49,012 nucleotides of DNA from an uncultured bacterium. Its GTDB lineage: Bacteria > Verrucomicrobiota > Kiritimatiellia > RFP12 > UBA1067. Position numbers and translations under genes: made by a program. The stretch lies in NCBI GenBank assembly GCA_902763655.1, contig CACWSW010000005.1, positions 1 to 49,012 of the forward strand. The letters run 5' to 3'. This document shows positions 16,586-34,463 of this stretch, in pieces. Numbering within the stretch: position 1 is the stretch's first letter; every line of letters begins with the position of its first letter. The notes beneath the pieces were generated by a model. It had not been told where the DNA came from. It worked only from the letters and a program-made list of their open reading frames with translations, and did not search any database.

Positions 16586-17770
16586 ATGCAGGAAACAGGC
16601 ACAAGAAGAAATGTCATCGCGGATGCGCTGCGCGGCGTCGCCGGGCTGCTCGTGCCGCTCTTCCACATTTCCGAGCCGTACGGGTGGAACAGGGGCGACG
16701 TGCCTGCGGTGCCGCAGGTCTGCGGGCACGGGTATTTGTGCGTGGAGTTCTTCCTCCTCCTGATGGGCTACATGCTGGCGTACGCCTACGACCGCCGGTG
16801 GAAGGAGGGGATGGGCCTGCGGGACTTCTTCGGGCGTCGCCTGCTGCGTCTGCATCCGCTCGTCGTCTCCGGCACCCTGCTCGGACTGGTCGTGTTCTTC
16901 GCGCAGGGCATGGGGTGTCCGCTCTGGGACAAGGCGTTGCGGGCGTTCGGTCCGTGGGAGTTCGCTGGGCTGGTGGCGGCGGGCCTCTTGCTGCTGCCGT
17001 ATCCGGGGTCCGGGTTCCTCGTGCCGTTCAACCCGTGCGCCTGGACGCTCTCCTACGAGTATCTTGCGAACATCCTCTACGCGCTCTTCGTGCGGCGGCT
17101 TGGGCGCGTTGCGCTTGCGGCGCTTTCCGTGGTCGCGGGCCTCTGGACGGCGTCGTACGCGCTGCACGTGGACCTCAACGCGATATTCGGCACGTCAAGC
17201 GAGTTCCTAGCGCAGGTCGCCGCGCGGAAGGGGGACACGATCGAGATCGGGTGGAGCCTCGGTGCGCAGCACGTTTACGGGGCGTGCGTGCGGCTCTTCT
17301 TCCCGTTCCTGTTCGGGATGTTCCTGGCGAGGACCGGCTGGAAGATACGGATTCCGCGCGGCGGGCTGGCGATCTGCCTGGCGGTGTTCCTGCTCGTGCT
17401 GTTCGTGCCGATGCCGTTCGGAGGCATGTGCCAGAACGGCGCGTTCGAGCTCGTGGCGCTGATGGTGGTGTTCCCGCTTCTGCTGCTGGCGGGGGCGGGC
17501 ACGGAGGTGACGCACGCGAGGACGGCGGCGGTGTGCGCGTTCCTTGCGGAGCTGTCATATCCTTTCTACATGTCGCATTATCCGTTCATGAAGATCCACA
17601 ACTGGTGGGTGCGGACGTACTCCGCCGGCTTTTCGGCCGGCTTCTGCGTGGCGCTCGGCGTGTGCGAGTACCTCGCGCTCGCCGCGCTGGCCTATGTGAT
17701 GATGCGCTTCTGGGACCGCCCCGTCAGGCGAATGCTGAGCGGCGCGAAAAATGTTGGTATGGGTACTTGA
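16586..17770 (+). CDS. acyltransferase family 3 (OafA/YrhL-like) membrane protein
   Basis: DALRGVA, HGYLCVEFFLLLMGY, RRLLRLHP, WTLSYEY, ELSYPFYMSHYP; about 10 hydrophobic segments. Confidence 0.85.
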   Translation: MQETGTRRNVIADALRGVAGLLVPLFHISEPYGWNRGDVPAVPQVCGHGYLCVEFFLLLMGYMLAYAYDRRWKEGMGLRDFFGRRLLRLHPLVVSGTLLGLVVFFAQGMGCPLWDKALRAFGPWEFAGLVAAGLLLLPYPGSGFLVPFNPCAWTLSYEYLANILYALFVRRLGRVALAALSVVAGLWTASYALHVDLNAIFGTSSEFLAQVAARKGDTIEIGWSLGAQHVYGACVRLFFPFLFGMFLARTGWKIRIPRGGLAICLAVFLLVLFVPMPFGGMCQNGAFELVALMVVFPLLLLAGAGTEVTHARTAAVCAFLAELSYPFYMSHYPFMKIHNWWVRTYSAGFSAGFCVALGVCEYLALAALAYVMMRFWDRPVRRMLSGAKNVGMGT

Positions 17771-17795
17771 CTATCGATAAGTAATTATCTATAAT
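17767..17795 (+). promoter_or_regulatory. near-consensus sigma70 promoter
   Basis: TTGACT (17767-17772), 17-bp spacer, TATAAT (17790-17795). Confidence 0.75.
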
Positions 17796-17800
17796 ATACG

Positions 17801-17943
17801 CCGTCTTCCAACCCACAAAGGGTTGTGACGGGAACTTGAGGCCGCGAGGCCATGAGGCTCTCGCCCCGGAAGGCGCGGCACGCATGGGATTTTCTCCCCC
17901 TTTCTTCCATGTGTCCCGCGCCTTTCGGGGCGAGATGCTTTTT
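17801..17943 (+). ncRNA. candidate small structured RNA
   Basis: Hairpin 17801-17831; GGCC-GCGA-GGCC at 17840-17851; ~30-bp stem 17859-17935 with a pyrimidine-only loop; then TGCTTTTT. Starts 6 nt after TATAAT. Confidence 0.55.
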
Positions 17944-18019
17944 CGGACGGCGGGTTTTTGGTAGAATGGGCGAAAAACGCCGCCAGAAGGGTGGCGGAAC
18001 CAACAAGGAGTATGTCGAT

Positions 18020-19774
18020 ATGCGATTCGGACAGAAGACTGGAATGCTTGCGGCGCTGGCGGCCGCGCTGGCGGCGGGAACGCTTTCGGGCGTCGAGAAG
18101 CTTGCCCTGGACGGGCTGTGGGACTTCCGCCTGGAGAAGGGGAAGTCGCTGGAGGAGGTTTCGCTGCCGGCGTTCGAAGCGAACGACAAGATGACGGTCC
18201 CCGGCTGCTGGAACGCGATGTCGCGCTACTTCAACCAGCACGGCACCGGCTGCTACAGGCGGCAGTTCGCGCTCGCGGCGGACGCGGCGAACGCGTTCCT
18301 CGTGGTTGACGGCGCAGGACTGCGCTCGCGCTTCTGGATCGACGGGCGCGAGATCGGCATGAGCAAGCTGCCGTGGAGCAGGTTCGAGTTCGCGACGGGA
18401 CCGCTCGCGAAGGGGACGCACGAGCTGGTGGCGGCCGTCGATTCCGTCGTGGACAACGCCAAGGTGAAGCTTTTCTGGGACTTCTACGACTTCTATCCCT
18501 TCGGCGGGTTCCACCACGGCGTGTGGCTGGACGTGCAGGCGAAGCCCGTCGAGCTTCGCCGCGTGGTGGTGCGCACGCGCGACATCAAGACCGGCCGCGT
18601 GGAGCTGGAGGCGCAGTTCGCGGGCGAAGGTGCGCCGGCTGACTTCGAGGCGGAGGTGGCGTTCGACGGAGGAGCGGCGCGGAAGCTGGCGTTCAAGGGA
18701 CGGAGGGCGTCGGTTTGCGTGCCCGACTTCAAGTTGTGGAGCCATGACGCGCCCAACCTGCACAAGGTGGCTGTGACGCAGAACGGCGTGACGGCATGCG
18801 CGCGCTTCGGCATCCGCCAGGTGGGCACTGCCAACGGGCGGATCACGCTCAACGGACGCCCCGTCTACTTGAAGGGCGTCAACCGGCACGAGTCGCACTA
18901 CGAGTTCGGCGTGACGACGCCCGTGCAGCTCATGTACGAGGACGTGCAGAACCTCAAGGATCTGGGCGGCAACTTCATCCGCGGCAGCCACTACGCGCAG
19001 TGCGAGGCGTTCCTCGACCTCTGCGACGAGCTGGGCGTCCTGGTGTGGGAGGAGTCGCTCGGCTGGGGTAACAAGCCCAAGCAGCTGAACGACCCCGAGT
19101 TCTGCGACCTCCAGGAGGAGGAGACGCGCCTCATGGCGCGCAACTCCATCAACCACCCGTGCGTGATCGTGAGCGCGTTCCTGAACGAGCCCGATTCCGA
19201 CACGAAGGTCTGCAAGGCGCTCGTCGACCGCCTCCTCGCGGCGCTCCGCGCCGAGGACACTGGCCACCTCGTCACCTTCGCGTGCCACCGCAACCTGAAG
19301 GACATCTGCCACGCGAACACGGACATCATCGCCTACAACACCTACCCCTGCTGGTACTCGTGGGAGATGGAGACCGGCTCCTCCGAGGAGATGCGCCGCA
19401 ACATCCGCGCGTGCCACGAGGAGATCGTGGCCTACTTCCGCAACCGCTACAAGGACAACCGCCCGATCATCGTGAGCGAGACGGGCGTGAAGGCGGACTA
19501 CGGCGTGCGCGATCCGCGCGGCAAGGCGCAGTACACCGAGGATCATCAGGCCGAGTACGAGCGGATCATGCTGGAGGAGATGTTCGCGATGAAGGACATC
19601 GCCGGCGTCGCCATCTGGCAGTTCACGGACTGCAAGACCTACACGCGCACGCGTGGCGCGCGCAACCGTTCCTACGGCGTGAACACGGGCGGACTCTACG
19701 ACCTCTACCGCCGCCCCAAGCTCGTGGTCGACGAGGTCCGCGCCCTCTACAAGGCCAAGAACGAATCGGACTAA
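18020..19774 (+). CDS. glycoside hydrolase family 2 (beta-galactosidase/beta-glucuronidase-like)
   Basis: LDGLWDF, LWSHDAPNL, RFGIR, LKGVNRHE, NFIRGSHY, DELGVLVWEE, NHPCVI, NEP (acid/base), IVSETG (nucleophile). SD AAGGAG before ATG 18020. Confidence 0.9.
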   Translation: MRFGQKTGMLAALAAALAAGTLSGVEKLALDGLWDFRLEKGKSLEEVSLPAFEANDKMTVPGCWNAMSRYFNQHGTGCYRRQFALAADAANAFLVVDGAGLRSRFWIDGREIGMSKLPWSRFEFATGPLAKGTHELVAAVDSVVDNAKVKLFWDFYDFYPFGGFHHGVWLDVQAKPVELRRVVVRTRDIKTGRVELEAQFAGEGAPADFEAEVAFDGGAARKLAFKGRRASVCVPDFKLWSHDAPNLHKVAVTQNGVTACARFGIRQVGTANGRITLNGRPVYLKGVNRHESHYEFGVTTPVQLMYEDVQNLKDLGGNFIRGSHYAQCEAFLDLCDELGVLVWEESLGWGNKPKQLNDPEFCDLQEEETRLMARNSINHPCVIVSAFLNEPDSDTKVCKALVDRLLAALRAEDTGHLVTFACHRNLKDICHANTDIIAYNTYPCWYSWEMETGSSEEMRRNIRACHEEIVAYFRNRYKDNRPIIVSETGVKADYGVRDPRGKAQYTEDHQAEYERIMLEEMFAMKDIAGVAIWQFTDCKTYTRTRGARNRSYGVNTGGLYDLYRRPKLVVDEVRALYKAKNESD

Positions 19775-22350
19775 TCCTTGAGCAAGCGGATCTCGTCGGG
19801 GGCGAGGGTCAGGGTCTGGGGGCCGCTCTTGCGGAATAGCGTCACTTCCTGCTTGAGCGCGGTGGAGTTTACGAGAACCACGGCCCTGCGGCCGTCGAGC
19901 GACTCGTATGCCGCGTGGAACACGCACGGCGTATCGCGGTCGTTGAAGCTCTGCGTCCCGCAGACGAGGCGCGGCGGCTTGACCTGGCGTCCGAAGGCGA
20001 GCCACTCGCGGCCTTCGCCGTGGTAGAGCGCCACCCACTTCTTCATGAAGTCGTCGTAGGCCGAGCGTCCGGAAAGCACTAGCGGCTTGGCGGTGCCGTC
20101 TCCGGCGACGGACTCCAGCTTCATGCCGTCGACCCACGCGGTCGCCTCGCCGTCGACGTGGATCATGATGCGGATCATCTCGGAACCGGCCGGGAGGGTG
20201 AAGTCCTTCGCGACGAGCCGCCAGCCGTCCTCGGGTTTCGGGAAGGGGAGCGAGCCGCCGCCGAGCCCCTTGAGGCCGGGCGCGAAGATGCCGAAGCGGA
20301 TCGAGTTGCCGCGCACCATCTTGCCGGTCTTCATCCACGCGGAGAGGCGGTACTTCGCGCCCACGCGGAACGCCGCCATGTCGTCGGTGGACACGTTCTG
20401 CGACACCTGGACCGTCTCCTTTGCGCCGGTCTCCAGGCGCAGGCTGGCCGCGCCGTCCTTCTTCTCGCTGCGGTCGACGAACCAACGCCCGCTCCAGACC
20501 GCACCGTTGTAGCCGTTGAGGCGCTCCCAGCTGGCGAAGCCCGCGTCGTCCTTGTTCGCCATCTCGAAGTCGCCGTTGGCGAGCGCAATCAGGTTGGCGT
20601 TAAGGTCGCGCTTGGATGGCGAGAGATGCGGAATCTGTCCGTCCGCCGCCTCGTGCGCCTGCCACACGCGGTTGCCGCGACGAGGGTTGGACTGGAAGCA
20701 CGGCACGAACTCGTGGTAGAGGTAGTTGAAGACGCTGGCCCACTCGTGCTTGATCTCGCAGTCGCGGTAGTCCTGTATGCCGACGAGGTGGTTGAAGTGC
20801 TCGTTCGGCTCCTCGAAGCAGACGATGGAGTCGGGCTCGACCTTCTTCATCGTCTCGGCCATCGTGACCAGCTGCTCGCGGAAGCAGTCGGTCTTCCACT
20901 TGCCCTCCCCCGGGGGATGGGGATGGTTCTTCGCCCAGCAGGGCGGGAAGGCGCCGCCGACCACCTGGTCGACCTGGATCATCTCGCAGCCGAGCTTCAC
21001 GAGCGGCAGGCACACCTCGTCGTTCCACCAGCGGATCGTCCACGGGTCGCCGCCGCACATGCAGGTGCAGTTGCCGCCGCACAGCCAGGATGGCGTGCGG
21101 ATGTACATCAGGCCGTTGCGGTTGTGGATCGCGTGTGGGCGGGCGTAGGAGTCGAACCGCGCGCGGTCGTCCCACAGGAACGAGCCGTCCGGCTGCTTGG
21201 TGTAGAGGAGCGTCCAGTGGTAGCCGCTCGGCCACGGGAAGGCGTGTCCACCGAGCTTGCGCATGTCGCGGACTAGCGATTCGAAGGTGGCGTCGTCTGG
21301 ATAGACGGGATAGTAGTCGGGCGTGACCCAGTAGCCGCGCTTCTCCCATCCCCAGTAGGCCATGACGAGCGGGGCGGAGACGAACTCCTTTAGCCAGTAG
21401 TCCTTCATCCATGCGCGGATGTCTTCGGTGCGGCCAAGCCAGTCGCGTCCGAAGCGCACCATCGCGGGAGCGTCCTTCATCCAGGCGGGGAGATCGGTGC
21501 GGAACTTGAGAGGCGTCGCGCACCACGGCTGGCGGAGCGCCCATGCCTTGTAGATGTCGGCGGCGTCGTGCCAGTCGGCGAGCGAGCCGTCGGCGCCCTC
21601 GAAGGCGGCGGTGACGACGTCGTAGGACTGCTCGTCGTCCTTGGCGAAGCCGATGCGCTTGACGGCGAACACGAGCGCGTTGCGGGCGCGTTCGACGGAA
21701 AGGTGCTTTGTGTGGCCCTGCGCGTCCTCGGCGGCCATGTAGAATCCGCCACGGTCGTCGTAGAGGCAGGAGAACTGGGCCACGAGGTTGCCGGGTTCGC
21801 GTCCGCTCGTTGCCCAGCCGGGCTTGTTGGCGCCGGGGTTGCGGATTATGCCGCCCTTGGCCATGCCGAGGACGCACGCGTCGTCGGCGCCTGAGGTGCC
21901 GAGCTGCGTTGCGAGAGGAATGCGCGGGTAGCTGGTGTCGGTGACGGCCCATCCGTCTCGCGCGGCCGTCTTGATGCGCCAGCGGATCTTGGTGTCGCCG
22001 GCTGGGGCGCGCACGGTGCAGACTACCTTCTCCACCGGGCCTTCGGCAAACGCGTAGACGAGGCGGGCGCCGTCGGCGAGCCGCTCGGCCGAGAATGTTG
22101 TGGCGTCGGCGGACGAGACGTAGGCGATGTTCGTGTAGCTGTCCGCCCGGCAGAGGCTGAGCGCGAAGAGCGGGGCGTGGCTTTTGATCGCGCCCAGCTC
22201 CTGTCCGCGGACGGCTACGACGCGCGCGACGGCGCCTTTTGCCTGCTCGTCGAACGAGACAGAGAGGGAGGAGCTCGTCACGTCTATTGCGAGAGCCTCG
22301 CAGCCGATGGCGGCCGCGACGGCGGCGGAGTAGAGAAGTGTGGCTTTCAT
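19771..22350 (-). CDS. DUF6259-like secreted protein with an inserted CBM4/9-like domain
   Basis: Signal peptide; WHDAADIYKAWA, TPDYYPVYP, QVDQVVG; NGDFE...YRLSAWMKT...WVDGMKL carbohydrate-binding-module pattern. Confidence 0.65.
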   Translation of the reverse strand: MKATLLYSAAVAAAIGCEALAIDVTSSSLSVSFDEQAKGAVARVVAVRGQELGAIKSHAPLFALSLCRADSYTNIAYVSSADATTFSAERLADGARLVYAFAEGPVEKVVCTVRAPAGDTKIRWRIKTAARDGWAVTDTSYPRIPLATQLGTSGADDACVLGMAKGGIIRNPGANKPGWATSGREPGNLVAQFSCLYDDRGGFYMAAEDAQGHTKHLSVERARNALVFAVKRIGFAKDDEQSYDVVTAAFEGADGSLADWHDAADIYKAWALRQPWCATPLKFRTDLPAWMKDAPAMVRFGRDWLGRTEDIRAWMKDYWLKEFVSAPLVMAYWGWEKRGYWVTPDYYPVYPDDATFESLVRDMRKLGGHAFPWPSGYHWTLLYTKQPDGSFLWDDRARFDSYARPHAIHNRNGLMYIRTPSWLCGGNCTCMCGGDPWTIRWWNDEVCLPLVKLGCEMIQVDQVVGGAFPPCWAKNHPHPPGEGKWKTDCFREQLVTMAETMKKVEPDSIVCFEEPNEHFNHLVGIQDYRDCEIKHEWASVFNYLYHEFVPCFQSNPRRGNRVWQAHEAADGQIPHLSPSKRDLNANLIALANGDFEMANKDDAGFASWERLNGYNGAVWSGRWFVDRSEKKDGAASLRLETGAKETVQVSQNVSTDDMAAFRVGAKYRLSAWMKTGKMVRGNSIRFGIFAPGLKGLGGGSLPFPKPEDGWRLVAKDFTLPAGSEMIRIMIHVDGEATAWVDGMKLESVAGDGTAKPLVLSGRSAYDDFMKKWVALYHGEGREWLAFGRQVKPPRLVCGTQSFNDRDTPCVFHAAYESLDGRRAVVLVNSTALKQEVTLFRKSGPQTLTLAPDEIRLLKD

Positions 22351-22410
22351 GCGGACGATTATACCACAATATCGCCGTACAGGCCCCGCGAATTATGATA
22401 CAATGCCGTC

Positions 22411-24375
22411 ATGAAACCATCAGCTTTCCATACGATGTTTGCCGTTGCCGCCTTTTCGGTCGCGGCGGGCGCTGTCGATATTCTGCCGTCTGGCAAGATG
22501 GCGCTGGGCGCGAACTACTGGGCGAGCCACGCCGCCACCGAGATGTGGCGCAAGTGGGACGCGAAGGCCGTGGACGAGGATCTGCGCGTCCTCGCCGCGA
22601 ACGGTTTCCGCGTCCTGCGCGTGTTCCCCAACTGGGCGGATTTCCAGCCCATACACGCCTGCTACCTGAGCGCCGACAAGTTCGACCAGGTGAACGAGAC
22701 GCGGATGTTCGACTCGGAGGAGCCTCTCCCCGACACGCCCTGCGGCCGCGCCGGCGTGGACGAGCGCATGGTGGAGCATTTCGAGGAGTTTTGCGACCTC
22801 GCCGAGAAACACGGCATCCGTCTCATCGTACCGCTCCTCACCGGACAGATGACGTTCCGCAACTACATCCCTCCGGCGCTCGCGAACCGCAACCCGTTCA
22901 GCGACCCCTACGCGCTCATGTGGGAGGGGCGCTACCTCGAGTGCATGGTCTCGCGCCTCAAGGCGAAGAAGGCGATCGCGGCGTGGGAAAGCGGCAACGA
23001 GTCGCGCATCCTCGGCAAGAGCGAGAACACGTTCCATTCCGAGGCGTGGCTGCGGTACGTCCATCAGACCATCCGCTGCGCCGACCCGTCGCGTCCCGTC
23101 ATCGGCGTGGACGGCCTCAACATCTCGCGCGAGGACAAGTGGCCGAGCGCGATGAACGCGTCGCTCTCCGACTACACGACCACCCATCCCTACGGCTTCT
23201 GGGGCGCCGTCTACAACGACGACTTCCTCTCCGTGCGCTCGCTCACCTTCGCCGCCGCCCAGACGTACGCGCTCGAGCAGATCGGCGGCAAGCCCGCGTT
23301 CATCGAGGAGCACGGCTCGCGCCGTCAGGAGCAGACGAGCCAGAAGGGCGTGGCGAACTACATGCGCGGGATGCTCTGGAACTCCTGGGCGCTCGACTGC
23401 AAGGCGATGCTCTGGTGGTGCGCCTACGACCAGACGGGAATGACGATCGCCCCCTACAACTGGCGCCAGCCCTGCGTGGAGCTCGGCATCTTCCGGCGCG
23501 ACCGCACGCCGTACCCGGCCGTGGACGTGGTGCGCAAGTTCGTCGCGCTGCAGGACGGCCTGCCGTTCGACGCGCTCCCGAAGGCGCGGACGGACGCCGT
23601 GGTGCTTACGACCGACGCCGCCGTGGCGCACTCCTCCTACATCCTCGCGCGCCAGGCCGGCATCATGCCGCGCTTCGCGAACCCCGAGGAGAAGCTGCCC
23701 GACGCGAAATGCTACTTCCTGCCCAACGCGCTCGGACGCGCCTACCTCACGATCGAGCGCTGGGAGGAGCTGAAGGCGAAGGTGCGCGCCGGCGCCACGC
23801 TCTACCTCTCGTGGAACGACACGTTCCTCGACGCGATGGAGGAGGTGGGCGGCATCGAGGTCGCGTTCCGCCAGGCGACGGGCGGCTCGGACGTCTGCGA
23901 CTTCGGCGACTTCAAGCACACGTTCGGCTATTCCGTGAAGCGCCGATTCAACGCGCTCACCGCTGAGACGCTCGCGAAGAACCAGGACGGCGAGGGCGTG
24001 TTCTTCCGCAACCGCTACGGGAAGGGCACGGTGTACGTGTTCATCCACAACTTCGAGAAGACGTACTACGGGGCGGCGGGCAAGTACGAGGGCGACGCCT
24101 GGAAGGTGTGGGCGAAGGTGTGTCCTGTCAACCGGCTCGTGCAGACCGGCAACAAGAACGTGTTCGTGTCGGAGCATTGCTTCGGCGGCGGCCGATGCGG
24201 CGTGCTGGTGGTGAACAACGGCGCGCGCACGTATTCGGGCACGCCGCAGCTGTGGAAGAACTGGCGCGTGACGCGCGCGCTCACGGACGATCCGGATTTG
24301 GCGAAGTGGGAGGACGGCAAGCTGACGCTCGCCCCCTGCGCCGGCATCCTCCTCATGGCGGAGAAAGTACAGTGA
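22411..24375 (+). CDS. clan GH-A glycoside hydrolase (GH5-like, putative beta-mannanase/mannosidase)
   Basis: GANYWASHA..MW..WD, LRVFPNWADFQP, WESGNE (acid/base), TTHPY, FIEEHG (nucleophile); adjacent to mannose-6-phosphate isomerase. Confidence 0.75.
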   Translation: MKPSAFHTMFAVAAFSVAAGAVDILPSGKMALGANYWASHAATEMWRKWDAKAVDEDLRVLAANGFRVLRVFPNWADFQPIHACYLSADKFDQVNETRMFDSEEPLPDTPCGRAGVDERMVEHFEEFCDLAEKHGIRLIVPLLTGQMTFRNYIPPALANRNPFSDPYALMWEGRYLECMVSRLKAKKAIAAWESGNESRILGKSENTFHSEAWLRYVHQTIRCADPSRPVIGVDGLNISREDKWPSAMNASLSDYTTTHPYGFWGAVYNDDFLSVRSLTFAAAQTYALEQIGGKPAFIEEHGSRRQEQTSQKGVANYMRGMLWNSWALDCKAMLWWCAYDQTGMTIAPYNWRQPCVELGIFRRDRTPYPAVDVVRKFVALQDGLPFDALPKARTDAVVLTTDAAVAHSSYILARQAGIMPRFANPEEKLPDAKCYFLPNALGRAYLTIERWEELKAKVRAGATLYLSWNDTFLDAMEEVGGIEVAFRQATGGSDVCDFGDFKHTFGYSVKRRFNALTAETLAKNQDGEGVFFRNRYGKGTVYVFIHNFEKTYYGAAGKYEGDAWKVWAKVCPVNRLVQTGNKNVFVSEHCFGGGRCGVLVVNNGARTYSGTPQLWKNWRVTRALTDDPDLAKWEDGKLTLAPCAGILLMAEKVQ

Positions 24376-24386
24376 ATGGAAATTAG

Positions 24387-24470
24387 ACAGGATTACAGGA
24401 TTAAGAGGATTAACAGGATTAGATTTCAGAATCGAAAATCCTGTAAATCCTAAAAATCCTGTAATCCTGT
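24387..24470. repeat. inverted repeat of tandem ACAGGATT units (possible terminator hairpin)
   Basis: Four (A)CAGGATT-like units at 24387-24420 mirrored by four AATCCTGT-like units at 24437-24470, followed by a T run. Confidence 0.85.
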
Positions 24471-24539
24471 TTTACGCCAAAACCGCCTCAGAGAAAACAT
24501 TTGCGATCTTGGAACTTTGCGAAGTGAGGGGTATGGAAA

Positions 24540-25577
24540 ATGATTGCTAAATTACTGCCCAACCGCGTGCGCCGCACCTATCTGGGTGGCGGCCGGATCG
24601 ATGCCTTTACGGGAGGGTCGCGCTTGTCGCGATTGTCAACGGGCGAGACGCCCGTTGTCCCAGTAGAGATGTCCATGCCCGAGGACTGGATGGCGTCTAC
24701 GACCACTGCGTTCAACGGCACGCTTGAGATCGAGGGCGAGGGGCTGGGTCGGCTCGAGGACGGGCGGCTCGTGAAGGACGTGGTCGGCACGTTGCCGATT
24801 CTCGTCAAGTTGTTGGACAGCGACGAGCGTCTGGTGATTCAGGCTCATCCCACCGTGCCGTGCGCGAAACGGCTCTTCAACTCGTCCGTGGGCAAGACGG
24901 AGTGCTGGTATTTCCTCGACGGCACGGCGCCCGACGCGTGCGTGTATCTCGGCTTCAAGCCTGGCATTACGCGGGAGGCGTGGGAGGAGGCCTTCTGGGG
25001 AGGGTCGCAGCTTGCTGCGACCGCGGCGGACGCAATAAATTGCGCCCCTCCCGAGTTGCTCACCTTCCTCCACCGCATTCCGGTGAAGACGGGGGACTTC
25101 GTGTTCGTGGACGGAGGCATGCCGCACGCGATCGGCGGTGGGTGCTTCATGATCGAGCTGCAGGAGCCGAGCGACCTCATGGTGGTGGCGGAGCGCGTCA
25201 CGCCGTCGGGTCGGCGCATCCCCGACGCGAAGATGCACGGCGGCGTCGGCTGGGAGAAGATGTTCGAGGTGTACGAGTACGAAGGGCGGACTTTTGAGGA
25301 GACGTGCGCAAGGTATGTGAAGCGCGCGGCGGGCGCAATAAATTGCGCCCCTCCCGTGACGCAAATCCTCGGGCCGGAATTGACGGACAAGTTTGAGATG
25401 TGGCGCGTGACGAACGGCGGGAGGGTCGCGCTCCAGCGCGACCGTTCTGTCGCCGTGGTCACGGACGGGACTGGCGAGGTGAACGGCCTTGCCGTGAAGA
25501 AGGGGGATAGGCTGGTAATAGCGAACGAGCGTCAGCTCGCCGTGTCCGGCGAAGTGACGCTCGTCGTCTGCGCGTGA
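24540..25577 (+). CDS. manA: class I mannose-6-phosphate isomerase carrying in-frame REP insertions
   Basis: PEDW, ILVKLLD..ERLVIQAHP, KTECWY, GMPHAIG, ELQEPSD cupin/Zn motifs. Confidence 0.8.
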   Translation: MIAKLLPNRVRRTYLGGGRIDAFTGGSRLSRLSTGETPVVPVEMSMPEDWMASTTTAFNGTLEIEGEGLGRLEDGRLVKDVVGTLPILVKLLDSDERLVIQAHPTVPCAKRLFNSSVGKTECWYFLDGTAPDACVYLGFKPGITREAWEEAFWGGSQLAATAADAINCAPPELLTFLHRIPVKTGDFVFVDGGMPHAIGGGCFMIELQEPSDLMVVAERVTPSGRRIPDAKMHGGVGWEKMFEVYEYEGRTFEETCARYVKRAAGAINCAPPVTQILGPELTDKFEMWRVTNGGRVALQRDRSVAVVTDGTGEVNGLAVKKGDRLVIANERQLAVSGEVTLVVCA

Positions 25578-25583
25578 TCCTGC

Positions 25584-27071
25584 TTACTTGTCGAGTGAGC
25601 GGATGCGGATGTTGCGGAAGTAGGGCCGGGATTTCCCGTGCATGCCCTGGAATCCGATCTTGCCCTTCGTGGGGAGGTCGGCCCACGGGCGGCTGAGCCA
25701 TGGCGGGATCTTCGTGCCGTCGGGGTTCTTCTTCGCGTCGGTCCACCTGGAGAGGTCGGCGTCGAGCACCTTCTCACCGTTGCAGATGATCTGGATGTTC
25801 TTGCCGCGCGCGAAGACGGTCATGCGGTTCCACTCGCCGGCGCGGCGAACAGTCTGCTTCGTGGGCGCGCAATGTCCGTAGAGCGAGGCGTTCAGCATGT
25901 ACGCGGGGTCCTTGGACCACTTCTCGGCGTAGTCGTCGAGGAGCTGGACCTCGACAGTGTTGGGAATCCAGTTCTTCGTGTCGGAGCCGTAGATGAGCAC
26001 GCCGGAGTTGGCGCCGGGCTCGAGCTTGTACTCGAAGTCGAGGGCGAAGTTCTCGTACTCGGCCTTCGTCCAGAGGGCGCTGTCCTTGTTCGCGGTGATC
26101 TCGCCGCGGCGGCCCTTCTGCTGCCACACGCCGGGCTCGACGTCGAACTGGTCCTCGATCTTCTGGCCGCGGTTGTAGAGCGGCTTCCAGGGGGCGACGC
26201 GGGAGTTGGGGTGGCCGGAGACGATGTCCATCTTGACGGCCCACTCCCACACGCGGCCCTTCCAGGTGTCGGCGGGCGTGCCGGGCGTGGGCTCGTTCAT
26301 GAAGCAGTGGGGCTCGAGGGCCATCACGTGCAGCTCGGCGGGGATGCCCATCGTGCGGAGCTTGTGGTAGACACGCACGGAGACCATCGGGGACCAGCCG
26401 TCGGCGTCGCCGTGCACTAGGCACATAGGCGGCGTCTTCGCGTCGAACTTGAACTCCGGGACGAGCGGCGCTGAGAGGTCGTCGCACGCCTTCACCTCGC
26501 CCTTCTCCGCGTTCGGCACGAGGCCGTAGGCGGGGTAGACGGGCACGGCCCAGTTCACGTGGCACGGCAGCTTGTCGATGTCGTCGATGGGCTCGTAGGC
26601 GGGCGTCTGCGAGGACGTGGCGACCATGAGGGTGAGGTGTCCGCCTGCGCTGCAGCCGGTGAAGCCGATGTTGTCGGGGTCAAGTCCGCGCTTCGCCGCC
26701 TCGCTGCGCACGATGCGCACGGTGCGCTGGGCGTCCTGCCAGGCGGTGACGTGCTTCGGGAGATTCTTCGGGCGCGGGGTGCGGTACTTCATCGTGACCA
26801 CGGTGACGCCGCGCGCAAGGAAGTAGTCGCGGATGGGCGAGACCTCGAACCCCTCTACGCCGCAGCCCATGTACGAACCGCCGGACACGGAGATCAGGAT
26901 GGCGTCGCTGGTCCTCTTTTCGGGAGTATGCCAGATGAGGTATGGCTTCTCCGGCTGGTTCGCCTGGACGGAGGGCATCTTGCCTTCCGGCCACAGCGGG
27001 ACCTTGGGGCCGGAGGCGCCGAAGAGGGCGAAGCCAGCTATGCAGAACACGGCAATCAGGTTTGTCTTCAT
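25584..27071 (-). CDS. secreted alpha/beta hydrolase (BD-FAE/acetylesterase-like) fused to a DUF1080 domain
   Basis: SGGSY, GCSAGGH nucleophile elbow, HGDAD, EPH; C-terminal YENFALDFEYK..GANSGV..EVQLLD..GEWNRM..GKIGFQGMHG..FRNIRIR typical of DUF1080. Confidence 0.8.
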   Translation of the reverse strand: MKTNLIAVFCIAGFALFGASGPKVPLWPEGKMPSVQANQPEKPYLIWHTPEKRTSDAILISVSGGSYMGCGVEGFEVSPIRDYFLARGVTVVTMKYRTPRPKNLPKHVTAWQDAQRTVRIVRSEAAKRGLDPDNIGFTGCSAGGHLTLMVATSSQTPAYEPIDDIDKLPCHVNWAVPVYPAYGLVPNAEKGEVKACDDLSAPLVPEFKFDAKTPPMCLVHGDADGWSPMVSVRVYHKLRTMGIPAELHVMALEPHCFMNEPTPGTPADTWKGRVWEWAVKMDIVSGHPNSRVAPWKPLYNRGQKIEDQFDVEPGVWQQKGRRGEITANKDSALWTKAEYENFALDFEYKLEPGANSGVLIYGSDTKNWIPNTVEVQLLDDYAEKWSKDPAYMLNASLYGHCAPTKQTVRRAGEWNRMTVFARGKNIQIICNGEKVLDADLSRWTDAKKNPDGTKIPPWLSRPWADLPTKGKIGFQGMHGKSRPYFRNIRIRSLDK

Positions 27072-27108
27072 CTTGCGTTACCTTTCGTGTGTTTCAGGGT
27101 TGACATCG

Positions 27109-28701
27109 CTAGCGGACCGTCTCCGCGCCGAGGGCGGTGGCCTGCTGTACTACGGTGGTCTTCTCGTAGCAGGCGAACGCGCCGTCGACGAGCTCCTTCG
27201 GCGGCTTGCGGCTGAAGAGGTTGACGACCGGCACGATGACGAGTCCGCCCAGCATGGCGAGAGCGCCCGTGTTGATGGGCGACTTCAGGAGCGCAGGCAT
27301 CGCGTCGCGGCAGAAGACGCCCACGAGCGTGAAGGCCGGGGCGAGGATGAAGCACACCCAGCATGACGCTGCCGTCACCTTCTTGGAGTAGAGCGCGTAG
27401 AGGAACGGCGCGAGGAACGCGCCCGCCATCGCGCCCCACGAGACGCCCATCATCTGCGCGATGAAGGCGATCGGGCTGGTGCTCTTGTACTGCACGAGCG
27501 CGAGGATGGCGGAGATGGCGATGAACACGACGATCAGCGCGCGGATGCAGAGCACCTGCTTCTTGTCGCTCATCTTCTTCACGACGGTGCCGTTGATGAA
27601 GTCGATGGTGAAGGTGGAGGACGAGGTGATGACGAGCGAGGATAGCGTGCTCATGGAGGCGGAGAGGACAAGCACCACCACGAGGGCGATGAGCATTGGG
27701 GACAGGCCCTCGAGCATCTTCGGGATGATGGCGTCGAAGCCGCCGGCGGGAATGCCCTTCGGGCCGATGTTCAGCACGTCCGAGAAGAGACGTCCGAAAC
27801 CGCCGAGGAAGTAGCATCCGCCCGCCACCACGAAGGCGAATAGGGTGGAGATGATCGTTCCCTTCTTGATGGAGCCCTCGTTCTTGATCGCGTAGAACTT
27901 CTGCACCATCTGTGGGAGACCCCAGGTGCCGAGGGAGGTAAGGATCACGACGAAGAGCAGGTTCAGGGGCTCGGGGCCGAGGAACGAGGTGAAGATGCCG
28001 GGCGTCGGCTCGCCGCCGGGAATCATGGCGGGACCAGGGACGCGGGCGAGGCCGTCGAGAGCCGCCACGAGGCCACCCTTGGAGGCGAGGATCGCCCAGA
28101 TGACGGCGGCGATGCCCACCAGCATCACGAGCCCCTGGATGAAGTCGTTGATCGCCGTGGCCATGTAGCCGCCCGCGATCACGTAGATGGCGGTGAGGAC
28201 GGACATTAGGACGATGCACCAGGCGTAGTCGATGGAGAACGCCATGCCGAACAGGCGGGAAAGGCCGTTGTAGAGCGAGGCCGTGTAGGGGATGAGGAAG
28301 ATGAAGATGATGGCGGCCGCCATGAGCTTCAGGGCCGGGCTGCCGAAGCGCTTGGCGAAGAAGTCGGGCATGGTGGCGGAGTCGAGGTGTTGCGTCATGA
28401 TGCGCGTGCGGCGCCCGAGGACAGCCCAGGCGAGGAGCGAGCCGATGAGCGCGTTTCCGATGCCGGCCCAGGTGGCCGAGATGCCGTAGCGCCAGCCGAA
28501 CTGGCCGGCGTAGCCCACGAACACGACGGCGGAGAAGTAGGAGGTGCCGTAGGCGAAAGCAGTCAGCCACGGACCTACGGTGCGTCCTCCGAGGACGAAG
28601 CCGTTGACGTCCGTGGCTTTCTTGCGGCACATCCAGCCGATGGCGATCAGCAGGGCGAAATAGGCGGCGAGCAGAATGGTGTTGACTAGTATCTGGTTCA
28701 T
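27109..28701 (-). CDS. sodium:solute symporter (PutP/PanF family)
   Basis: GFVLGGRTVGPWLTAFAYGTSYFSA, TMPDFFAKRF, GGYMATAINDFIQG, GLPQMVQKF, SASMSTLSS; about 13 TM segments. Start at ATG 28701. Confidence 0.9.
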   Translation of the reverse strand: MNQILVNTILLAAYFALLIAIGWMCRKKATDVNGFVLGGRTVGPWLTAFAYGTSYFSAVVFVGYAGQFGWRYGISATWAGIGNALIGSLLAWAVLGRRTRIMTQHLDSATMPDFFAKRFGSPALKLMAAAIIFIFLIPYTASLYNGLSRLFGMAFSIDYAWCIVLMSVLTAIYVIAGGYMATAINDFIQGLVMLVGIAAVIWAILASKGGLVAALDGLARVPGPAMIPGGEPTPGIFTSFLGPEPLNLLFVVILTSLGTWGLPQMVQKFYAIKNEGSIKKGTIISTLFAFVVAGGCYFLGGFGRLFSDVLNIGPKGIPAGGFDAIIPKMLEGLSPMLIALVVVLVLSASMSTLSSLVITSSSTFTIDFINGTVVKKMSDKKQVLCIRALIVVFIAISAILALVQYKSTSPIAFIAQMMGVSWGAMAGAFLAPFLYALYSKKVTAASCWVCFILAPAFTLVGVFCRDAMPALLKSPINTGALAMLGGLVIVPVVNLFSRKPPKELVDGAFACYEKTTVVQQATALGAETVR

Positions 28702-28772
28702 TTGTACGCGTGTCCTTTTAAAAAGAAACGCGCGTAGTATATCAAAAATACCGCCGTTTCGCCATGCGGATA

Positions 28773-29123
28773 TCACCAGTATCGGCGATATGCGCGCGGG
28801 TAGGCGACTGGGGCCGGATAGACCACTGGCGGGGGCGCGACGACCACTGGGGCGGGCGCGACGACTGGAGCGGGGACGACCACGGGGGCGGGTACGGGGG
28901 TCGGATAGACCGTCGGAGCCGTGTAGACCGCTGGGGCCGGGGCTATGATGTCATGCGCAAGTCCCACCGTGGCGGCCGTCAGGCCGACGATGCCTGCCGC
29001 TAGGCCGAGACCATGGTGGTGGTGATGGTGATGATGTCCCCACCCGCCGCGGGGGCCGTGTGCGAAAACGCACGTGGCAGCAGTCATTGCAAGGGCCATA
29101 ACTAAGATTTTCTTCGTGTTCAT
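28773..29123 (-). CDS. small secreted His/Pro-rich protein
   Basis: Signal peptide MNTKKILVMALAMTAATCVFA, an 8-His run, a glycine-zipper-like segment and PAPVVV repeats. Confidence 0.65.
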   Translation of the reverse strand: MNTKKILVMALAMTAATCVFAHGPRGGWGHHHHHHHHGLGLAAGIVGLTAATVGLAHDIIAPAPAVYTAPTVYPTPVPAPVVVPAPVVAPAPVVVAPPPVVYPAPVAYPRAYRRYW

Positions 29124-29223
29124 GATTTGCCTCGTCTTTCTGTTTGCTGTGGGCACCATCGCCCGACATGAATGCTAGGAATCTCGCCCTCGGCCATCTG
29201 ACACGCATTTGAAAAATTTTTCT

Positions 29224-29253
29224 CGTTCCCCGTTCCCCATTCCCCGTTCCCCA
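29224..29253. repeat. heptamer tandem repeat (CRTTCCC)x4
   Basis: CGTTCCC CGTTCCC CATTCCC CGTTCCC CA directly upstream of TGA-TATACT (29254-29262). Confidence 0.8.
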
Positions 29254-29312
29254 TGATATACTTGTCGCGTGCGTGCGCGACATGGTGTCGGGCGCGCAAG
29301 GAAAATATGCAC

Positions 29313-30251
29313 ATGTCGAACGAAAACTTTTCGAGGCGCGGGTTCATGGCGGCTGGTGGCGGCCTGTTGGCGGCGGGATGTCTTGGCACCGATGCGCAGA
29401 AGTCTGCGCAGTGCTGTTCGCGCGGACGGTTCGCGCTCAACCCCGCGACGATACGCGGGTACAAGCTGGAGCTTAAGGACCAGGTCAAGTGTGCGATCGC
29501 CGCTGGCTACGACGGCATCGAGCCGTGGCTCGCTGACGTGCAGAAGGCGAAGGACCGCGGCGAGCTGGGCGACATCAGGAAGATGTGCGCCGACGGCAAC
29601 CTGAAGATCGTGGACGGCATCGGCTTCGCTCACTGGTCGTTGCCGGACGACGCGGCGCGCGCGAAGGGCATAGAGGAGATGAAGCGCGACATGGCGCTCA
29701 TGGCCGAGCTGGACTGCCCCTACATCGCGGCGCCGCCGTTCGGGCTGCAGAAGCCCGGAAGTCCGCACGTGCCGATCGCCGATTTCATACCCAGATACCG
29801 CGCCGTGCTGGAGCTTGGCGACAAGATGGGGGTGACGCCTGTCCTCGAGTTCTGGGGACACTCCGCGAACCTGAGCCGCCTGAACGAGGCGCTGTTCGTG
29901 GCGTCCGCGAGCGGCCACCCCAAGGCTGCGGTGCTGGCCGACGTGTACCACATGTATCGTGGCGGAAGCGAATACGAGGGGCTGCGCTTCCTCTCGCCGT
30001 CCACGCTTCCCATCCTGCACATGAACGACTTCCCGGCGCAGCCCGCGCGGGAGAAGATGACTGACGCTGACCGCGTGTGGCCGGGCGACGGCTGCGCGGA
30101 CTGGAAGCAGATATTCGGCATCCTGCGTGCCGGCAACCTCAATCCGTGGCTATCGCTGGAGCTCTTCAATCCTTCATACTGGAAGACGACGCCGCTGGAG
30201 ACGCTGAAGACTGGCTTGGCAAAGATGAAGCAGGTGGCAAACTCAATCTAA
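29313..30251 (+). CDS. Tat-exported sugar phosphate isomerase/epimerase (AP_endonuc_2 TIM barrel)
   Basis: SRRGFM Tat motif and LAAGC lipobox; GYDGIEPW, LEFWG, DVYHM, HMND, DRVWPGDG, SLELF. Confidence 0.85.
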   Translation: MSNENFSRRGFMAAGGGLLAAGCLGTDAQKSAQCCSRGRFALNPATIRGYKLELKDQVKCAIAAGYDGIEPWLADVQKAKDRGELGDIRKMCADGNLKIVDGIGFAHWSLPDDAARAKGIEEMKRDMALMAELDCPYIAAPPFGLQKPGSPHVPIADFIPRYRAVLELGDKMGVTPVLEFWGHSANLSRLNEALFVASASGHPKAAVLADVYHMYRGGSEYEGLRFLSPSTLPILHMNDFPAQPAREKMTDADRVWPGDGCADWKQIFGILRAGNLNPWLSLELFNPSYWKTTPLETLKTGLAKMKQVANSI

Positions 30252-30270
30252 CGACAGAAAGGAACAGACG

Positions 30271-32379
30271 ATGCACAAATGGCAATTCTTCAAGTCGGCA
30301 CGCTGCGTGCAGGCTAAGGTGGAGACGGGCGACGACCTTCTTGCGCTCAAGGAACTTGACAAGAAGCTGTGGACGGTGCTGGCCGCGCCGACCACGGGCG
30401 TTCGCTTCGACGCGGCGACGCTGAAGCTGCTCGACGCCGACGGCGACGGGCGCGTGCGCGTGCCAGAGGTGCTGGCGGCGGTGGACTGGATGGCGGCGCG
30501 CTTCAAGAAGCTCGACTTCCTCTTCGCCGGCAACGCGGAGATCCCCCTTGACGAGCTGAAGGACGACACGCCCGAGGGCCAGGCGCTCCTTAAGTCCTTC
30601 AAGAACCTGCTCGCTCGCGCCGGCAAGTCTGATGCGGCCACGTTAGCGCTGGCGGACGTGACGGGCATGACTGACGTCTTCAACGCCCAGCCGTTCAACG
30701 GCGACGGCGTGGTCACCGCCAAGTCCACAGCCGATGCCGCCTTGGCGGACACGATTTCGGCAATCGCCGCGGCAGAGGGAACGGTTCCAGACCGCAGCGG
30801 AGAGGCTGGCATCGACCAGGGGAAGGCAGATGCCTTCTTTGCCGATGTCGCCGCGCGTCTCGCGTGGAAGTCGTCCGCGGCCGACGCCGCAGTGCTTGGC
30901 GACAAGACCGCCGACGCCTATGCCGCGTTCAAGGCCGTTGAAGAGAAGATCGACGAGTTCTTCACTCCGCCGGAGGATCTGCCGCTCGTGACGGACGCTC
31001 CGGATCCCGTGCTGCCGCTGACGGTTGGCGTGCATCCGTTCTGGCGCGGCAAGTTCCGCGCGTTCGCGGATGCGGTGGTTGCGCCATCGACGGAGATCAC
31101 GCGCGAAGAGTGGGATGCCGTCAAGGCGAAGTTCGCTCCCTACGAGGCTTGGCTCGCCGCCGAGGCGGGCAAGCCAGTGGCGGGGATTGCCGACGATGCG
31201 CTTGCGGCGTTCGCGAAGGATGGCGCCGCGCAGGCTCAGGTGAACGACCTGATCGCCAAGGACCTGGCGCTCGCGGACGAGTATGGGCGGCTTGTGGACT
31301 GCGAGCGCGCCGTGCGCTATGCGGCCAACCTCGTGCGCTGGCTGCACAACTACGTCAACCAGGCCAACCTCTACGATCCCAAGCGCGACGGCGTGTTCCG
31401 CACCGGCGACCTGTACATCGACGGGCGCGTGTGCCGCCTCTGCTTCGAGGTCGTCAACGAGGGCGCTCACGCCGCGCTCGCAGAGCGCAGCAAGTGCTGT
31501 CTGCTCTACGCGAAGCTGACGCGGCCCGCGACTGGCGAGGCGCGCGAGGTGTGCGCGGTCGTAACGGCGGGACCGACGGCAGGCCTCTACGCCGGACGGA
31601 ACGGACTCTTCATCGACTGCGACGGCAAGGACTGGGAAGCCGTCGTGGCGAAGGTGGTTGAGGCGCAGGTGTCGCTCAAGGAGGCTTTCTGGGCCCCGTG
31701 GGCGAAGATAGGGAACACGATCTCCGAGCAGTGCAAGAAGTTCCTCTCCTCCAAGCAGGACGCCGCAGTGGCGCAGGTTGGCGAGGGGGCTACCGCCGCC
31801 GCATCCGCACCTAAGGCGGCCGAAGCGCCTAGCGGCGCTGCGATCGCGTCTAGCGTGGCCGCGCTTGGCGTGGGCATCGGCATGGCTGGTGCCGCGGTCG
31901 GCGGCCTGATCGGCCTCGTGGCCGGCTTGCCGCTCTGGAAGGTGCTGGCTGGCGTGGCGGCCGTGATCCTGATAGTGTCGCTGCCGAGCGTGATCCTTGC
32001 GTGGTTCAAGCTTCGCGCGCGCGATCTTGGCGCCATCCTCAACGCCGGCGGCTGGGCGGTGAACCGTCCGCTCACCTTCTCGATGGGACTGGCGCGCACG
32101 TTCACGCGTCCCGCAAAGATGCCGGTGGGTTCAGCGGTGGCGCGCGATCCGTACGCGTCGCACGGCTGGCTGAAGGTGCTGTTCGTGCTGCTTCTGCTGG
32201 TAGGAATCGCGGCAGGCGTCTGCTGGAAGCTCGGCGTTTGTCCGTTCAGCTGCTGCAAGAAGCAGTCGGCTCCCGCCGCATGCACGGAGCAGGCGGGCGA
32301 GACCAAGCCTGCAGAAACACCCGCAAAATGCACGGATCAGGCGGGTGAGGCCAAGCCTGCAGAAACACCCGCAAAGTGA
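30271..32379 (+). CDS. conserved hypothetical membrane protein with an EF-hand-like motif
   Basis: DADGDGRVRVPE EF-hand-like loop; three C-terminal hydrophobic segments; SD GAAAGGAAC. Confidence 0.7.
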   Translation: MHKWQFFKSARCVQAKVETGDDLLALKELDKKLWTVLAAPTTGVRFDAATLKLLDADGDGRVRVPEVLAAVDWMAARFKKLDFLFAGNAEIPLDELKDDTPEGQALLKSFKNLLARAGKSDAATLALADVTGMTDVFNAQPFNGDGVVTAKSTADAALADTISAIAAAEGTVPDRSGEAGIDQGKADAFFADVAARLAWKSSAADAAVLGDKTADAYAAFKAVEEKIDEFFTPPEDLPLVTDAPDPVLPLTVGVHPFWRGKFRAFADAVVAPSTEITREEWDAVKAKFAPYEAWLAAEAGKPVAGIADDALAAFAKDGAAQAQVNDLIAKDLALADEYGRLVDCERAVRYAANLVRWLHNYVNQANLYDPKRDGVFRTGDLYIDGRVCRLCFEVVNEGAHAALAERSKCCLLYAKLTRPATGEAREVCAVVTAGPTAGLYAGRNGLFIDCDGKDWEAVVAKVVEAQVSLKEAFWAPWAKIGNTISEQCKKFLSSKQDAAVAQVGEGATAAASAPKAAEAPSGAAIASSVAALGVGIGMAGAAVGGLIGLVAGLPLWKVLAGVAAVILIVSLPSVILAWFKLRARDLGAILNAGGWAVNRPLTFSMGLARTFTRPAKMPVGSAVARDPYASHGWLKVLFVLLLLVGIAAGVCWKLGVCPFSCCKKQSAPAACTEQAGETKPAETPAKCTDQAGEAKPAETPAK

Positions 32380-32419
32380 CGTTCTGATCAGTTCAACATG
32401 AAGTCAGTTCAACATGAAG
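32281..32419 (+). repeat. 48-bp x2 coding tandem repeat plus a 16-bp x2 tandem repeat over the next start codon
   Basis: 32281-32328 and 32329-32376 encode CT(E/D)QAGE(T/A)KPAETPAK twice. TCAGTTCAACATGAAG at 32388-32403 and 32404-32419. Confidence 0.85.
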
Positions 32420-33322: not shown

Positions 33323-33403
33323 ATGGTTAAATGGTTGAAAGTTTAAAGGGTTGGCGGGTTGGAAGGTAGCGGGTTGGAAAGGTTAGAAGTTTAAAGAGTT
33401 AAA
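33311..33403. repeat. degenerate G/A/T-rich ~8-mer tandem repeat (GGTTAAAT/GGTTGGAA-like)
   Basis: About 11 degenerate units, almost C-free on the + strand, between the radical SAM and GDPD genes. Confidence 0.7.
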
Positions 33404-33424
33404 ATCGAAAGAAGAGGTGTTGAG

Positions 33425-34387: not shown

Positions 34388-34463
<76 letters not shown>

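Follow-up and report, generated by a model that had tools for sequence, protein, structure and literature searches.

REP-type palindromes within a manA-like gene belong to a genus-specific repeat family found in frame in many genes of a gut Kiritimatiellae bacterium

Six palindromes lie in frame within a manA-like gene

We analysed a 49,012-nucleotide stretch of DNA (the window) from a metagenome-assembled genome (MAG) of an uncultured rumen bacterium of the Kiritimatiellae: GCA_902763655.1, contig CACWSW010000005.1, positions 1..49,012 of the forward strand. Our subject is a group of six short palindromes that lie inside a manA-like gene of this window and resemble repetitive extragenic palindromes (REPs). 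The source genome, labelled G000, is a fragmented assembly of 4.50 Mb in 465 contigs, with 63.8% GC and a completeness of 91.6%. The host is a free-living gut anaerobe, and five studies of cattle and sheep yielded gut metagenomes that contain the window stretch. Codes such as G001 denote the compared genomes, L denotes loci, C contigs of G000, X sequencing runs and D repeat families of the window.

An earlier interpretation made from the letters alone (the sequence-only reading) had placed six REP-type palindromes within the manA open reading frame (ORF) without a break in the frame. All six were found there, the frame is open from end to end and the peptides that had been quoted are encoded:

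24540..25577, forward strand: host ORF, manA-like, class I phosphomannose isomerase (PMI) fold, 345 aa, open frame
24611..24634, forward strand: site 1, degenerate GGGAG unit, 24 nt, imperfect stem, reads GGSRLSRL
24637..24664, reverse strand: site 1, second-family unit, 9-bp stem, 3-nt loop, ACTGGGA tag, reads TGETPVVPV
24998..25022, forward strand: site 2, GGGAG unit, left half of a doublet, reads GGSQLAAT
25028..25052, reverse strand: site 2, inverted GGGAG unit, one stem mismatch, reads DAINCAPP
25331..25355, reverse strand: site 3, perfect inverted GGGAG unit, reads GAINCAPP, 97% to the site-2 copy (D7)
25419..25443, forward strand: site 4, perfect unit, 25/25 to a REP subfamily, reads GRVALQRD in a minority phase

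In the protein, site 1 occupies residues 25-46, site 2 residues 153-172, site 3 residues 265-272 and site 4 residues 294-301. The two units of the site-2 doublet (24998-25022 on the forward and 25028-25052 on the reverse strand) have their tags outside and are separated by a 5-nt spacer. A core said to be shared with an intergenic copy at 10132-10156 is present as claimed, over 14 nt.

The second-family unit of site 1 (24637-24664) consists, on the top strand, of a hairpin followed by TCCCAGT. Its hairpin pattern has 26 matches in the genome, counted over both strands of a palindromic pattern and corresponding to ~13 loci, and the word formed by tag and stem occurs 10 times. Elsewhere in the window, four GCCGCCATCTTGGCGGC-type hairpins lie within 140 nt at 2485-2625 (D3); two are ACTGGGA-tagged, and the group belongs to the tag family of the manA TGETPVVPV unit. 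Directly upstream of manA, between the stop of a glycosidase-like ORF (24375) and the manA start, positions 24376-24480 hold an AT-rich inverted array of ACAGGATT / AATCCTGT units.

The host gene is under constraint and its product is modelled as a phosphomannose isomerase

The manA product matched the equivalog family TIGR00218 with an E-value of 2e-13 (50.1 bits against a cut-off of 116.2) and PF20511 with 9e-4 (19.8 bits against 22). A profile built from manA relatives matched Protein Data Bank (PDB) entry 1qwr with an E-value of 5e-14, and the match covered the catalytic core. We modelled the protein with AlphaFold2 (AF2) on an alignment of 78 diverse relatives (A3), which gave a mean predicted local distance difference test (pLDDT) of 91.5 and a predicted template modelling score (pTM) of 0.90. 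The only ten-residue blocks below 80 were 21-30 (75), 31-40 (51), 151-160 (73), 161-170 (58) and 261-270 (78), and these coincide with sites 1-3. A first model on a narrow alignment of 74 sequences (A2) was dropped at a pLDDT of 59.1.

When the model was searched with Foldseek, the top 17 PDB matches were all PMIs, including 1qwr, 5zvu, 1zx5 and 1pmi; 1qwr matched with an E-value of 8e-19 and a TM score of 0.74. As modelled, the manA product has the double-cupin fold of PMIs. In A3, each of the residues H103, E121 and H196 is either invariant or conserved at 90% or more; they align with the H, E and H of 1qwr, which we take to be the metal ligands of class I PMI. The mannose-6-phosphate isomerase of B. 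subtilis (1qwr) shares its fold and its aligned H/E/H residues with the rumen protein; the two are 19% identical, and the rumen protein differs in its repeat-derived loops and in falling under the TIGR00218 cut-off.

For comparisons at the DNA level, we used codon alignments of G000 and the orthologous manA loci of seven congeners (G001, G002, G004, G005, G011, G012 and G016), eight loci in all. Over 282 gap-free core codons, the ratio of nonsynonymous to synonymous substitution (dN/dS) was 0.087-0.179 against the seven orthologues, including the 414-aa form of G012. This indicates purifying selection, so manA is not a pseudogene; the decaying pseudogene that the sequence-only reading had named as a possible outcome was not found, since the frame is open and dN/dS lies at 0.09-0.18.

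Independent sequencing supports the arrangement. Contigs of run X5, from another study, cover 24400-24664 and 25329-25665 with 0-1 differences and bridge site 1 and site 4. Depth increased 10-100 fold precisely at the units, the pattern that dispersed repeats should give, and contigs of other runs tended to end at units. The RNA runs found were of small share. X15 gave one 156-nt contig at the manA 3' end, and from X19 came seven contigs of a relative (90-95% alike), two of which extend out of the manA core into units of sites 1 and 3.

The palindromes belong to a high-copy family confined to one genus

We next considered the repeat at the scale of the genome. We counted 207 copies of the word GGGAGGGTCGC in the 4.50-Mb genome, where chance predicts ~10, and 63 of CGCAATAAATTGCG, where it predicts 0.0. 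A census of perfect hairpins (stem of at least 8, loop of 2-6) that assumed no tag returned 1431 hairpins genome-wide, and their commonest 5' flanks were by far GGGAG, then GGTAG. When GG[GT]AG was required to abut the hairpin directly, 494 units were found, compared with 45 in a mononucleotide-shuffled genome; 394 of them carry GGGAG and 100 GGTAG. The exact family pattern has 370 matches in G000, and the commonest unit sequence is present in 63 identical copies.

Each unit consists of a GGGAG or GGTAG tag and a covarying stem of 8-9 bp. At stem position 3, subfamilies differ by paired change (T..A, A..T, G..C or C..G), with the arms GGTCGC..GCGACC, GGACGC..GCGTCC, GGGCGC..GCGCCC and GGCCGC..GCGGCC; further stem alternatives are AAC..GTT, AGC..GCT, AGT..ACT and AAT..ATT. 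Because the changes are paired in both arms, they amount to covariation that preserves the stem. Units are often grouped: 117 of the 339 unit clusters hold 2-6 units, and adjacent pairs have their tags outside in 75 cases, inside in 30 and in tandem in 50. Length is nearly fixed, with 373 of 393 GGGAG units at 25 nt. A C precedes 283 of these 393 units, a G follows 365, and both are present in 270. The 25-nt unit with its bracketing C and G therefore forms a 27-nt module of nine codons, and this unit is stop-free in most frames.

The family pattern was present in 21 of 24 congeners, at 0-529 copies per genome. Among 16 other genomes of the same order, 14 had no copy and two had 2 each, and a reversed-pattern control gave 0-1 matches per genome. 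The repeat family is confined to one Kiritimatiellae genus and is practically absent from those 16 genomes.

Sites 1-3 are insertions or replacements, and site 4 is a length-neutral overwrite

A protein search returned 1119 homologues at E<=0.001, the best 120 of which are 277-422 aa long and 60-100% identical; the names of the homologues also point to Kiritimatiellae as the group of the organism. In an alignment of 20 homologues (A1), all four 313-aa forms lack inserts at all three places corresponding to sites 1-3, and the other homologues, up to 422 aa, carry varied combinations of modules at these same places. The modules at manA sites are GGSRSCAT, GGSQLAAT, GGSQFTAT, DAQERVPP, GAINCAPP, TGETPVVPV and AETAAPH, each the translation of one repeat sub-family.

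At site 1, 22 residues stand in place of the native TGADVSDGVPR, and at site 2, 20 residues in place of DGQRG; at site 3 the 313-aa forms read RAAGG|LRILG and have no unit. A few native residues are replaced at sites 1-3 and 7-15 are added, so the peptides of these sites are insertions or replacements relative to related orthologues, as the sequence-only reading had predicted. Their content also turns over. The GGSRLSRL unit of site 1 is not found in G016, G011, G001, G002 or the 313-aa forms, a perfect unit (GGSRSCAT) stands there in G004, and the TGETPVVPV unit is also present in the manA of G005. The site-2 doublet is not found in G005, G016, G011, G001 or G002; in G004 its left half is the QFTAT variant, with compensatory C>T and G>A changes in the stem. 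Other or decayed units occupy site 3 in G004, G005, G016 and G012. Between G000 and G004, at a synonymous distance (dS) of 0.22, site 1 is wholly different and site 3 partly so. A search for clean target-site duplications at the sites in manA, PyrG and TsaD gave no evident case; instead, native residues were replaced.

Site 4 behaves differently from the loops that the sequence-only reading had counted as four. Its DNA matches the REP consensus at 25/25 positions in G000 and G004, 18/25 in G016 and 17/25 in G011, and the protein of G011, G001 and G002 reads GGGRL(A/P)L(A/T)RPAC. The segment has equal length in all 8 loci, and in the AF2 model it lies in strands E294-297 and E302-314, with pLDDT blocks of 95 and 97. 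Equal length and ordered beta strands show that site 4 is a native segment and no added loop. It is a native REP-like coding segment that was turned identical to the repeat in the G000/G004 lineage, a length-neutral overwrite. The expectation that the repeats would map to surface loops of a structural model is in line with sites 1-3, which fall in low-confidence loops, and fails for site 4; likewise, three of the four proposed sites are insertions or replacements.

Units lie in frame in many genes

We scored coding context with a codon-usage classifier trained on 1090 long frames, which required one frame to run through the cluster and to be coding on both sides. Of the 339 clusters, 144 were in frame, 182 were not and 13 lay at contig ends. 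The in-frame share was therefore 144 of 326 scorable clusters (~44%), compared with 1243 of 1953 random positions; at a stricter threshold, 107 clusters stayed in frame. The 144 clusters sit in 124 open frames with a median length of 683 aa, and 17 of these frames hold two or three clusters.

We then drew 40 clusters at random from the 142 outside the window and compared their frames with Pfam. The spanning frame matched at E<=1e-5 in 31 of the 40, and in 12 the unit lay within the envelope of the domain: CTP synthase, GH92, trigger factor, TsaD, an ABC ATPase, GH106, ApbE, MFS, EamA, DUF5915 and two GH20b. A proteome scan for the peptides singled out by the sequence-only reading found AINCAPP 10 times, GETPVVP 9 times and GTARPT twice in open frames of at least 100 aa; GGSQLVAT occurs 44 times and DAQERVPP 32 times in the same set. 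These results indicate that manA is not special but one of many genes with in-frame units.

CTP synthase (PyrG) and TsaD were compared across five congeners. As in manA, units are present or absent at the same variable loops. In PyrG the native DAGTHDC gives way to SGGSQLAATADAQERVPP, and in TsaD the orthologous units of G000 and G004 are of different sub-families (QLAAT and RSCAT).

These two proteins also carry other repeats. In TsaD, a tandem peptide repeat occupies a second variable loop; it reads NDPKVLNDIKVLKVFNDLNDLKKL in G000 (L032), is longer in G004 (L079), was not found in G005 or G012 and is a separate in-frame repeat family. The TsaD match of G016 (L080) contains one in-frame TAG. 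The second variable loop of PyrG reads GGSQLAATACGRNKLRPS in G000 and has an unrelated repeat-like peptide, VPSAECLVPSAKNKRKAPSTKHQAL, in G004 (L074). Judging from the contents of the PyrG loops, several repeat families may compete for the same loops.

One reading phase dominates, and spacers follow a three-nucleotide period

Coding GGGAG units favour neither strand of the gene: 93 lie on the same and 78 on the opposite one. They do show a dominant phase, taken by 77 of the 93 same-strand units (chi-square P = 5e-23) and 57 of the 78 opposite-strand units (P = 7e-13), 134 of 171 overall (78%). In this phase the peptides read GGS..AT or DA..(V/A)PP and are rich in Gly, Ser, Ala, Thr and Pro. 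No such bias was seen for the 24 coding GGTAG units. We infer that selection purges Arg-rich readings; a phase-linked target preference might also produce the bias. Spacers between adjacent units measure 2, 5, 8, 11 nt and so on, and they are 2 mod 3 in 45 of 48 in-frame pairs.

Search for the mobilising enzyme

The sequence-only reading had proposed a search for a gene of a REP-associated tyrosine transposase (RAYT). PF01797 matched one gene in G000, at C278:2445-3548 (L021:1429-2532), which encodes a 367-aa RAYT-like protein of the HUH/Y1 type and matches NF047646 with an E-value of 1e-17 (64 bits against a cut-off of 80). On either side of this gene stands its own palindrome, AACAGGTC-N-GACCTGTT with TTTACAC after it, a pattern that gave 8 counts over both strands (~4 loci); the nearest GGGAG units lie ~590 nt off, inside another frame. 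This gene was dropped as the RAYT of the family, given that a different palindrome flanks it and that tblastn found four more RAYT-like genes.

These four, found with the Y1 genes of congeners, are C136:4305-5549, C185:4162-5328, C97:3031-4236 and C290:7415-8815 (L104-L107). Their frames of 389-467 aa have HUH-type and Y-x-x-NP motifs and a conserved C-terminal extension; their NF047646 E-values run from 3e-8 to 2.5e-3, all under the cut-off, and PF01797 missed them. Four units lie on one side of the C136 gene and two on one side of the C290 gene, and none near those of C97 and C185. Among 33 Y1 neighbourhoods of G000 and its relatives, only L089 of G004 is bracketed by units (3+2, all in one orientation).

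Interpretation

We read the six palindromes, with a probability of about 80%, as genus-specific REP-type selfish repeats whose intragenic copies are passengers in tolerant loops and are renewed in place. Units would be copied into, or over, tolerant loops in the right phase and would survive there as passengers, whereas copies landing elsewhere would be purged. The surviving in-frame copies would read as Gly/Ser/Ala/Thr/Pro-rich linkers (GGS..AT, DA..PP). Renewal in place could proceed by a gene-conversion-like copy-over from other units or by re-insertion at the hairpin, and would also explain site 4, where a native REP-like segment would have been drawn to the consensus with its length unchanged. 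Replacement of native residues, swaps at the same site and the state of site 4 together make a copy-over mechanism worth testing. The sequence-only reading had suggested that repeats act in manA as a source of new peptide loops. Three sites do carry in-frame REP-type loops; their usefulness is another matter, because the same peptides in unrelated proteins and the turnover between close relatives fit tolerated passengers better than useful loops.

Several observations weigh against this interpretation or parts of it. The TIGR00218 match is below its cut-off, so the manA function is deduced from fold and motifs. The RNA contigs are few, of low depth and strand-blind, may stem from DNA carry-over and are no proof of expression. 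The coding classifier is home-made, and 9 of the 40 sampled frames have no Pfam match. The inserts do more than add sequence, since native loop residues are gone from manA sites 1 and 2 and from PyrG, which makes simple transposition no more than a possible route. The 2 mod 3 spacing is also found in 56 of 70 pairs classed as not coding; with this periodicity outside coding sequence, a pure selection filter on coding copies is insufficient. Five divergent RAYT-like genes came out of the search of G000, and none is bracketed by units as a cognate RAYT would be; at 91.6% completeness, a gene may have been missed. Across 41 genomes, unit number did not correlate with PF01797 content, a comparison limited by MAG incompleteness: G022 (97% complete) has 176 units and no PF01797 match, and G007 has 7 matches and 7 units.

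A bolder account would make the family gene-adapted: a nine-codon, stop-poor, 3-periodic module with one tolerated phase that spreads mainly by copy-over onto earlier units or look-alike native sequence, as at manA site 4 and in the unit swaps of manA and TsaD, and serves as a genus-wide engine of hypervariable surface loops. We regard this as a possibility that deserves mention, though a doubtful one. If true, a copy-over family would keep the surface loops of more than 100 proteins hypervariable, including those of housekeeping enzymes. It is unlikely, in our view, that the hairpin itself is what is maintained in genes, as DNA or RNA, with the peptide as a by-product; it might then be bound or cut by a domesticated RAYT-like protein, or act as a recombination or replication signal or a translation pause. 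Stems do stay perfect and covarying inside coding sequence, and a compensatory pair separates the orthologous site-2 units of G000 and G004. At site 4 an ordered beta strand holds a perfect hairpin at unchanged length, and five RAYT-like genes are kept in the genome. However, the presence and identity of units vary among genomes only dS 0.22-0.55 apart, and copy number within the genus runs from 0 to 529. The lack of strand preference (93 to 78) argues against a role at the RNA level, and from the strong phase bias the peptide reading seems to be what is constrained.

That same bias, with 78% of coding GGGAG units (134/171) in the Gly/Ser/Ala/Thr/Pro-rich phase, could be taken to mean that the repeat peptides are adaptive loops or linkers selected for altered enzyme properties, as could the repeated loading of the same three manA loops in different lineages. 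Purging of Arg-rich readings predicts the bias equally, however. Identical peptides in PyrG, TsaD, trigger factor, transporters and glycosidases, similar constraint on the insert-free 313-aa forms, low model confidence in the loops and rapid turnover of their content all make adaptation a quite improbable explanation. Finally, manA might be a dying pseudogene, or the repeats might have been placed there by metagenome mis-assembly, and both the 465 contigs of a fragmented MAG and the breaks at units in contigs of other runs lend themselves to that view. It is hard to reconcile with the dN/dS of 0.09-0.18, a frame that stays open despite six units, dozens of homologues with in-frame units in independent assemblies and the independent-run contigs that bridge sites 1 and 4 with 0-1 differences, and we give it very little credence.

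Relation to known repeats

The closest likeness is to the GTAG-tagged REPs, which together with CGTC-tagged REPs form super-families in which stems covary and units pair up or cluster (Di Nocera, De Gregorio & Rocco 2013, BMC Genomics 14:522; PMC3733652). According to the portions of that article used here, intragenic GTAG REPs occur in several species, most of all in Opitutus terrae, where ORFs for known proteins contain units or dimers, two per ORF in some cases, that encode 20-30 aa; the same portions report no obvious correlation of REPs with tyrosine-transposase genes. The sequence-only reading had named Rickettsia elements as the precedent for coding insertions, which they are, but the intragenic GTAG REPs of several species make that choice too narrow. 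By the same source, GTAG REPs are high-copy palindromes of 20-40 bp (25 nt here) with a tag at one end, alternative complementary stem residues and frequent inverted dimers and clusters, and their extragenic copies lie mostly between convergent or co-directional ORFs; in all this the manA family resembles them. The phylum of the host, moreover, is a PVC relative. On the other hand, the main tag GGGAG (GGAG) falls outside the quoted tags GYAG, GYRG, GTRG, GTMG and GTGG, whereas the 100 GGTAG units do contain GTAG. The intragenic share (~44% of clusters) is very high, and a nine-codon unit with 3-periodic spacers, one dominant phase and same-site swapping is not mentioned in those portions (PMC3733652).

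REPs are extragenic by their classical definition, from which the manA family departs, as 144 of its 326 scorable clusters are in frame in coding sequence. Rickettsia palindromic elements (RPEs) reportedly lie in frame in genes that stay functional, in tolerant surface regions, and also between genes, as Ogata et al. are said to have described in 2000; RPE-1 measures ~100-150 bp. The manA family is like them in lying in frame in genes still under constraint, and both in and between genes. Unlike them, it consists of REP monomers and dimers with units of 25-27 nt in a free-living host of 4.5 Mb, not a reduced intracellular genome. In REPIN-RAYT systems (REPtrons) of E. coli and Pseudomonas, the RAYT gene lies between copies of its own REP. 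Those systems and G000 have tagged hairpins, inverted doublets and HUH/Y1 RAYT-like genes in common. In contrast, these units flank none of the RAYT-like genes in G000, and copy number does not track Y1 content.

A literature search on Kiritimatiellae and palindromes found, among the papers listed, none on such repeats by title and abstract, the topics being CRISPR, viromes and surveys, and one on Opitutus palindromic repeats in coding sequence found nothing further on the topic at the same level. Since REPs and RPEs inside genes have already been described, our findings are an extension, not a discovery. The nine-codon module, single phase, high intragenic share, same-site swapping and length-neutral overwrite may go beyond what is in print.

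The family shows how deeply selfish hairpins can enter the proteins of a free-living gut bacterium while its genes stay alive. Units are present in at least 124 open frames, those of CTP synthase, TsaD and trigger factor among them. Gene callers, filters on orthology or length and structure predictors will meet strain-specific inserts of 9-30 aa in such MAGs, whose assemblies also break where units lie. The nine-codon unit, its single phase and the length-neutral overwrite offer hints on how such repeats spread.

Extragenic copies and other repeats in the window

Copies of the family also lie outside the long ORFs of the window:

1573..1597, forward strand: extragenic GGGAG unit of the commonest subfamily (63 genome copies), outside long ORFs
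10034..10156, reverse strand: extragenic cluster between convergent ORFs, outside long ORFs over 10034-10120, made up of the three units below
10034-10059, reverse strand: GGTAG unit
10096-10120, reverse strand: GGGAG unit
10132-10156, reverse strand: degenerate unit

Segments of 57 and 52 nt within 9983-10100 and 10884-11002 are duplicated 901-902 nt apart at 96% identity (D9, D11). The duplicates adjoin GGTAG/GGGAG units on either side of a short region and may form part of a larger composite repeat. Two tandem repeats complete the set: a non-coding 29-nt unit at 2818-2912 in three copies, 83-86% identical to the reference copy (D10), and a 48-nt duplication at 32272-32367 with 88% identity (D15).

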